57,414 nucleotides of DNA from Deltaproteobacteria bacterium (GCA_016202395.1 JACQOV010000051.1:1-57414), one strand, 5' to 3'; positions 40,401 through 43,643 are shown, counted from the first letter of the stretch. Numbers and translations are program-made. Notes: a model not told the origin generated them from the sequence alone.

Positions 40401-42414
40401 CGAGGATCTCGATGGGGATCTTGATGGGGATGGTACCATTGAAGATGAGTATGTGCTGACAACCCGGTATACTTATGATCCACTCAATAACCTCCTCTTG
40501 GTGACGGATGCTGAAGGAAACCCGGTCATGACTAACACCTACGATGAGTGGGGGCGCAAACTCACGATGACCGATCTCGATGCCGGTGGGAATCTCGGGA
40601 AGTTCTATCAGTATGGTTACGATCTCAACGGGAACCTCACATGGCAGAGAGACGCTAAAGGTCAACGGATCGAGTATCAGTATGATGTATTAAATCGGGT
40701 GGTGAGAAAGAAATACAAGATGGAGTTGAAGCCGCTGAAACCTACGGATAAACCGGCCATCCTATACCCCAAAGGGGTCGAGTGTGCCGCATCGGCGCCG
40801 GGCGCGGTATTTACTTATCAATACGATGACGAGGGTTATAGCTCCGAGGGGGAAAGTTTCTGTGGGAGCGCTTCTATCGTCTATGCCGAGGGAAAGGTTG
40901 CCGAGGGGAGCGATCCCTCTGGCAGCACGATCTACTGTTACGATCCACGGGGAAGAGTGGTGAAGAAGCGCAAGATTGTGGAGGGTATCGCTCAGCCTTT
41001 TGATATGGCGTGGACTTACTATGATAACGATGTGGTCAAGACCCTCACTTATCCCGGTGGTTATGTGGTGACTTATGGGTATCGGAATGGCCAACTCAAC
41101 TCGGTGTGGGAGGATAAGGATAAGGATGGGGCCATCGGTACGACCGAAACGGTTTATGTCAAGAGTTTCGAATACAACTCTGCCAGCCAGATTGAGTTGA
41201 TCGAGCTGGGGAACGGTCTTTATACCGATTACACCTACGATTTGCAGAATGGGAGTTTGAGACTCCAATCGATCGTGACTTGTAATGCGGTAACGACTTC
41301 CAACGGGGAGCGGTTTTGTAGTGCGGGCTCGAACAGGCTCCAAGACATGGTCTATGATTATGATCCAGTGGGCAATATCCTCTCGATCGCCGATAAAGTG
41401 GAGAATGAGACGCAGCGGTTCCTCTATGACGATCTCTATCGGCTCACCTGTGGGGATGTTTATCCTGTGGCTCGGACATCCGATCCTGGGACTTGTGGCA
41501 CAGATCCCGATAGTGAGGATGGATTGGGGCTAACCTATCAAAGATACTACGGCTACGATGCGATAGGGAATATGAGGACCCACGGAGACAGCGTGGAAGG
41601 TTTCACATGGGTTTATTCTTATGACGAAACCGAGGGAGCAGGCCCTCACGCCGTAACGAGGATTATTACCAATAGTGGAGAGACCTTCAATTTCTATTAT
41701 GACTCCAATGGAAACATGGTCTCCATTCCAGACATCAACCGTGAGGCTCTTTCGGAGAGCCGGATTCGGGAGGCGACTTGGGATTTTGAGAATCGGATGT
41801 CTTCTCTGGTGGTGAAGTCATGGAGTGGGGTGGAGGAAGTGGCGATGGACTTCACGTATGACGATAGTGGCTGGCGCGTGATTAAGGAGAACGAGACCAG
41901 TGGGGAATTCACCACTTATATCGACAAGCTCTTTGAGGTGGGCTACGAGATTCAGGACGATGGCGCGAACATCTTCGACACGAAGTATATCTTCGCGGGG
42001 GATCGTCGCATCGCGCACATCAAGAACGATTATGGCGCCTCCGCCAATAACTGGGTGGCGGGTCCTCTTTCCGCTGGTTCTATAGGGTTGCCGTGGGGAG
42101 GTGGAATCTCGTTCGATCCTGCCATGGGGACGATTGCATTGGCGTTGTTATTGCTGCTACTTCCCTATGGGATTGCGCGTTGGGGGTTTCGGCGTTGGGT
42201 TCCAGTAGCGGTGCGGTTCAAAGAAGGGGTTGTTGTAGCCACACTCATTCTTGTGGTTTCGGGTGGCGTTTTCTTTGGACTGGGCGGCGTCAAATTCCGC
42301 TCCGCAGAGGTCTCTCCTTCCGTGATGTGGGACTATGATCAAGAGACACTGGACCAGTTAGGCAAGGTTCGCACGCCGAGTGTGGGGGCTGAAGGGAAAG
42401 TTTATCTCCCTTAG
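37414..42414 (+). CDS. Giant Rhs shell protein 2: signal peptide, SpvB-like N-terminus, YD repeats, C-terminal TM hairpin, no Rhs core
   Basis: TGAAGFELPIFTPPGRQG..ISLTYSSQ..GFGWSV; YD repeats to KYIFAGDRRIAHI; two hydrophobic helices then stop; no DHLGS/RYYDP/DPxG. Confidence 0.9.
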   Translation: MNRVTSGSRFLVLFLIFQLIQPWRWSAYSSVSEESPVLPEEDEVVLEEENPSSEEEEPTLSQAATAGGEEEPTLMDEHQVTIGATGAAGFELPIFTPPGRQGVSSGISLTYSSQGGIDTNGFGWSVDLGKIERSTRMDFADYSCGENNTVDDSQCEFEYIFKRNHGYLVFVSEYTNGSNEKVYVFRSRVEGESVLFELVDTNRDRRGEYWKVTESSPAGMVHYFGTSSSSQIITSDSYQYIFRWGFQRAVDRSGNTVIVEYQKDNGYLYLYRVKYTGFDQNKDGDFSDSGELSPQNEVEYTREKNCRNLDGGYSNAGYTIKQRYSKIIIKHDFNDGDGMQLVRQYDLVYSNEVGYTCGTWPYEQLAEFKELDSSGATLLRPPFKMEYYTNDGDFAANLVKGTDLQNRIEKLTTPLGGLTTFHYNSIWHMKATTDYNSADMDGNNVYVVNTTRNCNWDPDLIGGTEGTDYQCLWTRYEYRNGYYDTGWKEFRGAKYVTSYPANKSNNWQPLSNASITERRFIVGKDEYTDPDYYKGLVKSVTIKRASDSKVLHKVESDYILQSVASGIQRPLQKEVREVTYEYIGASQTPIVKARKKEFQYDSYGNATSVIDYGEVNSSDFSDIGTDKRTAKTSYINNTTQWLIGFPCESWIEDNSGAKYKETQSYYDNQTTSCSIGSRGLLTSVNAKLDGSWKSISKSAYDKYGNVREAFDANALAKGVSSIDPDTDSCTTSKATACTDYDSTYHQFPVTVRNALGQTVQTQFDTAIGKPTQITAPTGAIVQSEYDALGRLIKVAKPGNTLTNPSKCIFYVDYEASMENQGVRIYEKNGDETFTCTSESTASSNGIWAKKYVDGMGRTTKTLAKGVKGQSTSGSIRVDNLFDGERGLNNYVTNPFWDDSRTVTETTCDNGTDKCTANNYDVLARLVKVTTADGREVESAFKPWISIAIDPNKTAGEAYWNVKYEEKDAFGNTVIVKEGCKNANCRNLLGGTYSTTSEDLDGDLDGDGTIEDEYVLTTRYTYDPLNNLLLVTDAEGNPVMTNTYDEWGRKLTMTDLDAGGNLGKFYQYGYDLNGNLTWQRDAKGQRIEYQYDVLNRVVRKKYKMELKPLKPTDKPAILYPKGVECAASAPGAVFTYQYDDEGYSSEGESFCGSASIVYAEGKVAEGSDPSGSTIYCYDPRGRVVKKRKIVEGIAQPFDMAWTYYDNDVVKTLTYPGGYVVTYGYRNGQLNSVWEDKDKDGAIGTTETVYVKSFEYNSASQIELIELGNGLYTDYTYDLQNGSLRLQSIVTCNAVTTSNGERFCSAGSNRLQDMVYDYDPVGNILSIADKVENETQRFLYDDLYRLTCGDVYPVARTSDPGTCGTDPDSEDGLGLTYQRYYGYDAIGNMRTHGDSVEGFTWVYSYDETEGAGPHAVTRIITNSGETFNFYYDSNGNMVSIPDINREALSESRIREATWDFENRMSSLVVKSWSGVEEVAMDFTYDDSGWRVIKENETSGEFTTYIDKLFEVGYEIQDDGANIFDTKYIFAGDRRIAHIKNDYGASANNWVAGPLSAGSIGLPWGGGISFDPAMGTIALALLLLLLPYGIARWGFRRWVPVAVRFKEGVVVATLILVVSGGVFFGLGGVKFRSAEVSPSVMWDYDQETLDQLGKVRTPSVGAEGKVYLP

Positions 42415-42424
42415 CTATGAATAT

Positions 42425-42492
42425 TCTGAGACACGGGAGAGGAGTGCACACGCCTGGGCCCCCCTAGGATCCTCCTCTCCTTGTGGCTCAGA
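42425..42492. other. Imperfect ~20-bp-stem hairpin between shell-2 stop and cartridge-10 RBS
   Basis: TCTGAGACACGGGAGAGGAG (42425-42444) pairs with CTCCTCTCCTTGTGGCTCAGA (42472-42492); no U-tract; RBS GGGAGG follows. Confidence 0.7.
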
Positions 42493-42506
42493 TAGGGAGG
42501 ATTATC

Positions 42507-43643
42507 ATGCGCTCGGCATCTCTTTTAATCTTTTTACTAGTGGGCAGCACCCCTTTGGCCCATGCCTCCACCGTTGGAACCACGGCGTTTTATCTCACCG
42601 ATCATTTGGGAAGCACGCGGGTCGTAACCGATGGTTCTGGCGCAGAGCAAGCGCGTTATTCTTACTACCCCTATGGTGAGATCTTTTCCCCTCACCCTTT
42701 ACCCTCTCCCCAAAGGGGAGAGGGTTGGGGTGAGGGGGCTCTCTCTTCCCTTTTCACAGGTCAGAAATTCGACTCCGAAATCAACCTCTACTACTACGGC
42801 GCCCGATATTATGAGCCTCAATTGGGTCGATTCATCAGCCCTGATCCGGCTAGAGACGGCTTAAATCTTTATGCCTATGTCGGGAACAATCCTATCGCTC
42901 GAAATGACCCCACAGGGCTTTACTTTAAGATCAGCACTGGCAATTCAAAAGCAGATGCTGTGATTCAAAATTACATCACGAACATTTTGGCCGATTCGGA
43001 TCATCCTTTTCACGCGCAAATCAAAGAGTTGAACCTTAGCGAACATCGTGTGGTTATACAGACAATAGAACAGTCTGCTGATAACGGACTCCAACGGATG
43101 GCTTTATCTCAGATGGATCAGGATGGTTTGGGAGATTTTACCCTATTCCGTCCCATCAACTTGACCTTGGCCTATTTAAGGACTGTTGAAGCAATTGAAG
43201 TCGGTGACTTGGATCGACCCGTCTTGCAATTGGATCAAGGACAGCCGGAGGGGATCTTTTTCTCGTCGGCAGCGCTCGAAAAGATTGCGAGTGCAACTAA
43301 CCTCGATGAAAGAGAATTCGCTGTAGGCCCTGCCCTCGGTTCCTACGTGGCCTTGATGAATCTCAAGGGGGGTAAAGTGAATGCGACCGATGTGCTTGCG
43401 GGGCAGCCCCCTCTGCCGAGTTTAATCGGTACGGCGCTTCTCCTCAATCCCGGTGATTTGGAAGGTTATCTGAAGAATCCGAGAGAGGGGAATAAACAAA
43501 CTCTCAAGAAGTTTGGTCAGCCAGATCGCGAAACAGGGGATCTGGGTGTCGTTGAGCGGTTTCGAGCCACCGCCTCTCGATCGCTTCAGGGGTTAGCCAA
43601 GTGGGATCTTATTCCGGATGAGAGGTCTTGGCCTTGGGAGTAA
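42507..43643 (+). CDS. Cartridge 10: signal peptide + Rhs core (with palindrome) + unknown tip
   Basis: GGGAGG RBS; PLAHA signal; FYLTDHLGS..NNPIARNDPTG. Confidence 0.87.
   Translation: MRSASLLIFLLVGSTPLAHASTVGTTAFYLTDHLGSTRVVTDGSGAEQARYSYYPYGEIFSPHPLPSPQRGEGWGEGALSSLFTGQKFDSEINLYYYGARYYEPQLGRFISPDPARDGLNLYAYVGNNPIARNDPTGLYFKISTGNSKADAVIQNYITNILADSDHPFHAQIKELNLSEHRVVIQTIEQSADNGLQRMALSQMDQDGLGDFTLFRPINLTLAYLRTVEAIEVGDLDRPVLQLDQGQPEGIFFSSAALEKIASATNLDEREFAVGPALGSYVALMNLKGGKVNATDVLAGQPPLPSLIGTALLLNPGDLEGYLKNPREGNKQTLKKFGQPDRETGDLGVVERFRATASRSLQGLAKWDLIPDERSWPWE
42688..42737 (-). repeat. In-frame palindrome copy P3 (inverted relative to P1/P2 in coding sense)
   Basis: Encodes PHPLPSPQRGEGWGEG; its reverse complement differs from P1 at 2 positions. 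Confidence 0.9.

Follow-up and report, generated by a model that had tools for sequence, protein, structure and literature searches.

We studied the boundary between two adjacent plus-strand genes, shell 2 and cartridge 10, in a 57,414-nucleotide stretch of DNA from a Deltaproteobacteria bacterium (GCA_016202395.1 JACQOV010000051.1:1-57414; hereafter the window, which is contig C28 of a 1.9-Mb assembly that is 89% complete). Shell 2 (37414..42414) encodes a 1666-aa exported SpvB/TcdB_midN/RHS-repeat cocoon protein without an Rhs core, and cartridge 10 (42507..43643) comprises a signal peptide, a short linker, an Rhs core and a variable C-terminal domain. The 8-mer TTTATCTC stands both at the end of the first gene and at the start of the core in the second, and an earlier note on this DNA had proposed that it is either the scar of a splitting event or a recombination junction for shell-cartridge fusion. 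Our analysis indicates that the region is probably a fixed, selected junction of a two-gene split cocoon toxin of the Rhs/Tc-BC type, in which the 8-bp match is a relic and not a recombination site. Judging from the comparison of related sequences, selection keeps the two genes split.

The end of shell 2 and the shared 8-mer

The copies of TTTATCTC lie at 42401-42408 and 42589-42596 (both on the plus strand), with their Tyr codons 188 nt apart and in a shared register, each reading xTT-TAT-CTC. The first falls within GTT TAT CTC CCT TAG (V-Y-L-P-stop), the end of the open reading frame (ORF) 37414-42414, and the second within TTT TAT CTC ACC GAT CAT (F-Y-L-T-D-H), the first conserved codons of the cartridge 10 core. 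The Tyr-Leu register of the pair had been read correctly in the earlier note, as had the consequence that a deletion of the 188 bp would be in frame. The shell 2 ORF and the ORF starting at ATG 42507 are in different reading frames, and the loss of 188 nt brings them together, an outcome that is automatic because the Tyr codons share their register. The interval also holds what the note had placed there, all of it located at 42412-42566: the TAG stop of shell 2 (42412..42414, plus strand), a stem-loop, a Shine-Dalgarno sequence (GGGAGGA, 42495..42501, plus strand, 5 nt 5' of ATG 42507 and unpaired in the predicted fold), the ATG and a signal peptide. Fusion by frameshift or read-through was rejected, since the shell frame meets more stops past the TAG and the cartridge frame is open only after ca. 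42470.

After its last shell strand, shell 2 continues with ca. 35 residues, a first transmembrane helix (TM1), the basic loop RWGFRRW, a second helix (TM2) and a 41-residue tail ending EGKVYLP-stop, which confirmed the membrane hairpin and terminus reported before. TM1 (TIALALLLLLLPYGIA, 42130..42177) is nearly invariant in all orthologues, together with the basic loop that follows it (RWGFRRWVPV, 42178-42225), according to a three-way alignment; the stretch IALALLLLLLPYGI-RWGFR-WVPV is nearly unchanged even in an orthologue with only 59% identity. TM2 (GVVVATLILVVSGGVFFGLGG, 42226..42288) forms the second arm of the hairpin. Within the tail (42289..42411), the first 14 residues are variable and the last 27 (DYDQETLDQLGKVRTPSVGAEGKVYLP, 42331-42411), which end V-Y-L-P, are strongly conserved (all features on the plus strand). 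At this end, the stop codon takes the place of the D in DHLGS, in the same register as in the cartridges, whose consensus at the core start is (A/V)FYLT-DHLGS, and as in canonical Rhs proteins, whose consensus is G-x-x-(V/T)-Y-(Y/L/H)-x-x-DHLGS (e.g., TYYYHQ-DHLGS, KYQLP-DHLGS and TYLNHT-DHLGG).

Related junctions were compared in three metagenome contigs from two related lineages, namely L005 (Logan ERR14788038; shell protein P0001, 1648 aa versus 1666, 59% amino acid identity over the last 517 residues), L006 (JGI 3300045072; about 80% DNA identity) and L147 (JGI 3300045502; same population as L006). The shell ends with GADGQVRTYLP-stop in L005 and with GVEGKVYLP-stop in the other two. The split and the position of the stop (YLP-stop) are identical in all three contigs, with TAA as the stop codon in L006 and L147 and TAG in L005, and every junction leads to the same cartridge. 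In L006 and L147, the shell is followed, as in the window, by the hairpin, the ribosome-binding site and the signal peptide, and then by TTTFYLADHLGS. In L005, it is followed by the hairpin and by MRRWRHPSVGAVSLVAFFFSL..AQA/AT..SQAFY, where the next codon is cut at CT and the contig ends in the repeated core. The comparison of orthologues for fused versions, which the earlier note had suggested, thus yielded none, and the split form is found in four of four independent assemblies (window, L005, L006 and L147). Along similar lines, a phmmer search of 1.84 billion protein representatives with the last 133 residues of shell 2 returned only P0001 and a fragment from L147, with no fused relative, and a word-indexed search of 5.8 billion clustered proteins gave no fused close relative of shell 2. 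The more distant homologues examined were, without exception, fused Rhs proteins of the ordinary kind that lack a membrane hairpin. Back-translated pattern searches of metagenome and genome contigs gave only generic Rhs matches at 25 to 30%, and no shell 2 homologue was found in 40 comparison genomes, all of them related at the level of the same domain only.

The ratio of nonsynonymous to synonymous substitution rates (dN/dS) between the window and L006 was 0.185 in the shell body (dS, 0.83), 0.124 in the pre-TM region plus the membrane hairpin (dS, 1.35), 0.45 in the first 14 codons of the tail (dS, 2.06) and 0.054 in the last 27 (dS, 1.08). The most constrained piece of the region is the end of shell 2, which is therefore no decaying remnant and no fresh scar but an old selected state. 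In this respect, the idea of a splitting scar held only in part: the stop is one residue short of DHLGS and in the same place in three contigs, but the state is old and under selection (dN/dS, 0.05). As for the outcomes that the earlier note had listed as speaking against its proposal, no fused alleles were found and the paralogues do end at unrelated positions, whereas the orthologues end at the same position.

With regard to the paralogues, the genome (its ArgH is ≤60% identical to those of Nitrospirota, Desulfobacterota or Binatia metagenome-assembled genomes) holds six RHS shells arranged as three adjacent pairs, each with a fused giant followed by a core-less shell; the two pairs outside the window are at C95:5166-20305 and C29:1717-16224. 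The fused giants carry shell, TM hairpin, core and a hydrophobic C-terminal domain in one chain (Rhs1, 29975-37333 in the window; a 3192-aa protein on C95; a 3061-aa protein on C29). They resemble shell 2 in the order of shell, TM1, basic loop, TM2, linker and core, with a TM2 that resembles a cartridge signal peptide, and differ from it in having the core and the hydrophobic C-terminal domain as parts of the same chain; they are only ca. 28% identical to shell 2. Past the DPSGL cleavage motif, the three giants share a long, very hydrophobic multihelix domain (36540-37333 in Rhs1). The core-less shells of C95 and C29 have a terminal hydrophobic helix with P-x-G-(F/I), followed by RRRRR, an end reminiscent of an anchor or sorting signal at the C terminus. 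Among known C-terminal sorting signals, the only match was a subthreshold one to Loki-CTERM, in the paralogue on C29, and the genome yielded no exosortase.

At the DNA level, the 8-bp identity mirrors the Tyr-Leu common to both proteins, which is encoded by identical codons, together with two T's from the codon before. When scored against profiles built from cartridges and canonical Rhs proteins for the four positions that lead up to DHLGS, a post hoc comparison, VYLP and TYLP were in the top 1.3 to 2.4% of 4-mers from the large proteins of the genome, which is suggestive of, although not decisive for, kinship to the strand that precedes DHLGS. In our view, shell 2 has probably retained, as a vestige, a copy of the strand by which it once continued into a core of its own, and the match is what remains of an ancient split, although the fit of this end to a shell that formerly read through into its own core is thin. 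Chance had been allowed for in the earlier note, and it stands for the DNA, where five exact 8-mer direct-repeat pairs were observed in the 477-bp region against a mean of 2.9 expected from Markov resamples (so that the DNA match by itself is not significant), but less so for the protein, given the rank of VYLP.

It is conceivable, although in our judgment unlikely, that the tail is a functional peptide unrelated to the core strand and that Tyr-Leu stands at its end by coincidence. The number of repeat pairs fits such an explanation, as does the fact that the paralogous shells end elsewhere. What speaks against it is that shell 2 ends exactly one residue before the DHLGS position, past a membrane hairpin of the type found ahead of the core in the fused paralogues, that YLP is retained in the 59% orthologue and that the tail, G-x-V-Y-L-P, resembles the canonical G-x-x-V-Y-x-x-x-DHLGS.

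Four observations count against a relic strand. The likeness of the tail to the strand before DHLGS amounts to three or four residues (P of about 0.01 to 0.02), and hhalign detects nothing past RRIAHIK; both are also in line with coincidence. On C95 and C29, the core-less shells terminate directly behind TM1 and an RRRRR cluster, ca. 90 residues before the point reached by shell 2, and the in-register end is therefore specific to the shell 2 lineage. In the AlphaFold2 (AF2) model, the membrane hairpin and tail have no confident structure (predicted local distance difference test [pLDDT] score of 20 to 30), and the model is therefore silent on the tail. Finally, strong purifying selection on the tail agrees better with a functional peptide than with a simple relic.

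The other proposal of the earlier note was a recombination junction. In an active junction of this kind, slippage or recombination between the 8-mers would sometimes delete the 188 bp and generate a fused protein, possibly with cartridges 13 and 14 too. The direct repeat is in register, the same 8-mer also opens the cores of these two cartridges (at 46172 and 47317), and the close relatives L006 and L147 have it in both places. In L005, however, it is not conserved; the shell end there reads ACC TAC CTG CCG TAG and the cartridge GCC TTT TAT CT. The Tyr, Leu and Pro codons at the L005 shell end differ from those of the window by synonymous changes only, and the 8-mer is therefore not maintained as a DNA site. 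Besides, all four assemblies are split, neither of the two large protein libraries contains a fused protein, the interval holds a selected hairpin, and RecA-dependent recombination needs more than eight bases. Active use of the 8-mer as a recombination site today is thus not supported, and we regard an active junction as very improbable.

The intercistronic hairpin

Between the two genes, at 42425..42492 on the plus strand, there is a three-tier stem-loop with a fold of -39 kcal/mol and without a U-tract. Its stems are CUGAGAC/GGCUCAG (outer), GGGAGAGGAG/CUCCUCUCC (middle) and CCUGGG-CCCC-CCUAGG (apical). One three-tier fold is common to all four copies available (window, L006, L005 and the paralogous C95 junction), and pairing is kept via two-sided, compensatory changes in 5 of the 14 consensus pairs. 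The stems of the window and L006 are identical except for a swap of C-G to G-C in the outer one, while the spacer from stop to hairpin has an indel and many substitutions. Given this diverged spacer next to intact stems, recent transfer is an unlikely source of the conservation of the junction. The C95 copy (C95:20334-20374) shares ca. 42 nt and is located between the core-less shell and its first cartridge. A blastn search of the genome with the junction found the hairpin at these two sites only, both shell to cartridge, and it was not found in the spacer between Rhs1 and shell 2. The hairpin pattern had no match in species-representative genomes, and no Rfam family matches it.

A T-run after the stem-loop, the hallmark of an intrinsic terminator, is absent in all four copies. 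A consensus scan found no sigma-70-type promoter or intrinsic terminator between shell 2 and cartridge 10, hairpin included; its only calls nearby were a weak minus-strand promoter-like match within the start of the cartridge and a 5-bp stem at 42572-42587. We infer that the hairpin is an intercistronic RNA element (a stabilizer, a processing site or an attenuator) that uncouples the levels of shell and cartridge. As a separate observation, the last 17 codons of shell 2 (42360-42411) show 2 synonymous differences from L006 versus ca. 6 expected at the local dS, and an RNA-level constraint may reach from the hairpin into the 3' end of the gene.

The recurrence of the hairpin bears on another origin of the repeat, in which a leader element of 180 bp, made up of the stop, the hairpin, the ribosome-binding site and the signal peptide, entered a once-fused gene and created an 8-bp target-site duplication. 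A 180-bp segment is indeed flanked by an 8-bp direct repeat, and the hairpin does recur at a second shell-to-cartridge junction, on C95. However, only the ca. 42-nt hairpin is common with C95, where the junction has no flanking repeat, the 180 bp lack terminal inverted repeats, and no further copies were found in the genome or in species-representative genomes. The RAYT-associated repeat of the island (D18) is a different sequence. An insertion of this kind therefore seems to us highly unlikely.

Shell 2 and cartridge 10 compared with known cocoon toxins

The assignment of shell 2 to the cocoon proteins is based on Pfam matches to SpvB (PF03534, 2.5e-25), TcdB_toxin_midN (PF12256, 9.7e-6) and RHS_repeat (PF05593, 82 bits). 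The AF2 model of residues 468 to 1666 (mean pLDDT of 66) is a beta-spiral cocoon, whose best structural match is the TcdB2-TccC3 cocoon (E value of ca. 1e-40; TMq of 0.57 to 0.59), followed by type VI secretion system (T6SS) Rhs proteins and by teneurins. The Rhs core (plug plus protease, TIGR03696, DPxGL) was not found in shell 2 with Pfam, NCBIfam or hhalign. The hhalign homology to canonical Rhs proteins is significant through the strand ..KYIFAGDRRIAHIK (RRIAHIK), with none beyond. A putative degenerate core before TM1, where MAFFT had aligned DYGAS, PWG and FDP with DHLGS, PFG and YDP, was rejected on the same grounds (no hhalign support past RRIAHIK and no NCBIfam core). The core is instead in the next gene: residues 53 to 138 of cartridge 10 are a complete TIGR03696 Rhs_assc_core (83.5 bits), and the whole core (42588-42920, plus strand) runs from FYLTDHLGS to NDPTGL.

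The closest parallel is provided by the Tc BC pairs (TcdB2-TccC3 and YenB-YenC2). As in these, shell 2 begins with SpvB and TcdB_midN followed by an RHS-repeat cocoon, and the cocoon is encoded by two genes, the second of which brings a core with the DPxGL aspartyl protease and a hypervariable toxin. Several alternative C-type genes can serve one shell, as is the case for the Photorhabdus TccC paralogues. Cartridge 10 aligns with TccC3 2056-2159 and YenC2 595-690, that is, with the last ca. 100 residues before the self-cleavage site (..NDPTGL/Y in the query). Shell 2 aligns with TcB plus the shell of TcC and the cartridge with the last ca. 100 residues of TcC, with the stretch between them outside both alignments. 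Together, judging from these alignments, shell 2 and cartridge 10 cover a BC-type cocoon in order and with complementary parts. The position of the cut is different, however. TcC brings ca. 680 residues of shell, compared with ca. 110 (the last hairpins plus the core) in the cartridge, and the cut lies here ca. 570 residues further on, with the TcC-like part of the shell contained in shell 2. Unlike in Tc BC, each of the two proteins has a Sec signal peptide, a membrane hairpin sits in the shell where the split occurs, and there are ca. 58 cartridges for three core-less shells, about 20 to 1. The TcA-type domains PF18276 and PF03538 had no match in the 89%-complete genome, although control genomes were likewise without matches.

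Single-chain Rhs proteins (rhs of Escherichia coli and Salmonella, T6SS RhsA, Tse5 and WapA) share the YD-repeat shell, the TIGR03696 core and DPxGL, as well as C-terminal toxins that vary, alternative tips arranged in arrays, and gene conversion from core to core. Shell 2 has the RHS/YD shell of this class, but the core and DPxGL are in the next gene and not in the same chain. The cartridges also differ from classical Rhs orphans, which are promoterless silent fragments, each followed by an immunity gene, that become activated by recombination into the main gene. Here, every cartridge forms a full gene, with its own ribosome-binding site and signal peptide, the spacing leaves no place for immunity genes, and the shell gene is without a core as a partner for recombination and lacks the shared core DNA. 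We found no description of a core-level split Rhs cocoon in the literature. The core-level split with a separate secreted cartridge is a variant of the known Rhs/Tc cocoon toxins, with TcB plus TcC as the closest known.

The cartridge set and a possible route of assembly

Cartridge 10 starts with a signal peptide (MRSASLLIFLLVGSTPLAHA, 42507-42566, followed by ST, with predicted cleavage between AHA and ST) and has a 75%-identical orthologue (P0053). A tblastn search of the genome with the cartridge N terminus gave 63 matches, of which 3 were in giant ORFs and ca. 58 were stand-alone ORFs of ca. 250 to 460 aa (most of them 340 to 430 aa), amounting to roughly 3% of the 1.9-Mb genome. An N-terminal hydrophobic h-region, ending 8 to 36 residues before DHLGS, was present in 35 of the 36 strictly motif-defined cartridges, which are therefore complete exported genes and not promoterless orphans. 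The predicted mature N termini start 6 to 10 residues ahead of DHLGS. Neighboring cartridges abut (gaps of 0 to 40 nt), with no space for an immunity ORF. The best sequence matches of the cartridge core in the PDB are the mosquito SGS1 and SGS4 proteins.

The DNA homology between cartridges starts with the F codon at 42588, where the inverted-repeat arms I1 and I2 begin, and the cartridges share core tracts that are 80 to 100% identical to each other. For instance, a tract in the cartridge 10 core (42655..42790, plus strand) is 97 to 100% identical to cartridge 16 and only 13 to 50% identical to the orthologous cartridge in L006, from which it follows that core-to-core gene conversion among cartridges is active. 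The conversion of this tract is recent, and the stretch of 97 to 100% identity to cartridge 16 covers 42660-42779. Inside this tract, at 42688-42737, there is a 50-bp perfect-stem palindrome (CCCCTCACCC..GGGTGAGGGG, I25), also found at 20362-20411 in the opposite orientation. It is translated in frame within several cartridge cores (..PHPLPSPQRGEGWGEG..) and is missing from the orthologous L006 cartridge. On the basis of this distribution, the palindrome is spread with the gene conversion tract. Shell 2 shares with the cartridges only the 8 bp and is therefore excluded from homologous recombination with them.

Two further observations concern the cartridges. In comparison with L006, the toxin domain of cartridge 10 (42858-43568) has 80 to 100% identical codons at conserved residues (dS, 0.29; dN/dS, 0.55), versus only 45 to 65% in the shell (40585-42375; dS, 0.8 to 1.3), and the cartridge tip seems to have either a more recent common ancestor than the shell or a constraint at the nucleotide level. 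In addition, the repeat TAGGGGGTCAGACCTAACTATCTAACTAT occurs at 13741, 18878, 29696, 43655, 46044 and 47197 and adjoins an IS200-like (Y1) transposase gene (13762-14733). It lies just upstream of several cartridge starts; none is present at the junction of shell 2 and cartridge 10, where the hairpin stands instead.

As read from their sequences, both proteins carry export signals, and the basic loop of the membrane hairpin fits a cytoplasmic location, from which it follows that cage and tail would both lie outside the cytoplasm. A possible route of assembly would start with the cage (shell 2) being exported by Sec and anchored in the inner membrane. Signal peptidase would release cartridges with an N terminus a few residues before FYL, and a cartridge would then dock in trans, in the periplasm, at the cage's open end, where it would contribute the last hairpins as well as the plug and aspartyl protease. 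It would bring the strand FYLT-DHLGS, the ca. 100-residue core with the DPxGL self-cleavage motifs and the variable toxin domain. The hairpin in the transcript would probably set the relative expression of both genes through transcript stability, processing or attenuation.

In such a route, the conserved tail could be either the retained first strand, a relic with a gained role, or a docking or placeholder strand. The second option can be taken further, to a tail (…GKVRTPSVGxEGKVYLP) that mimics the N-terminal strand of the mature cartridge (…EVFYLT-DHLGS) and is displaced by the exported cartridge through strand exchange, with YL as functional mimicry and no scar. We consider it improbable, less so than an insertion or an active junction but more so than simple coincidence. 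If it were true, one membrane-anchored cage would be loadable in the periplasm with any of ca. 58 interchangeable plug-toxin cartridges.

Returning to the split junction with a relic strand, Rhs and Tc toxins are thought to enclose the toxin during the folding of one chain (or of a TcB-TcC pair). The layout here is different, with the cage and the plug plus toxin as separate exported proteins, cut precisely at the boundary of shell and core. This cut is conserved between species and is flanked by a selected tail peptide and an RNA hairpin. It also corrects the idea of the 8-bp repeat as a switch, in that diversification proceeds via gene conversion among cartridge cores and not via recombination between shell and cartridge. 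The junction marks where a natural cocoon can be divided and offers a concrete place for asking about completion in trans and alternative cargo.

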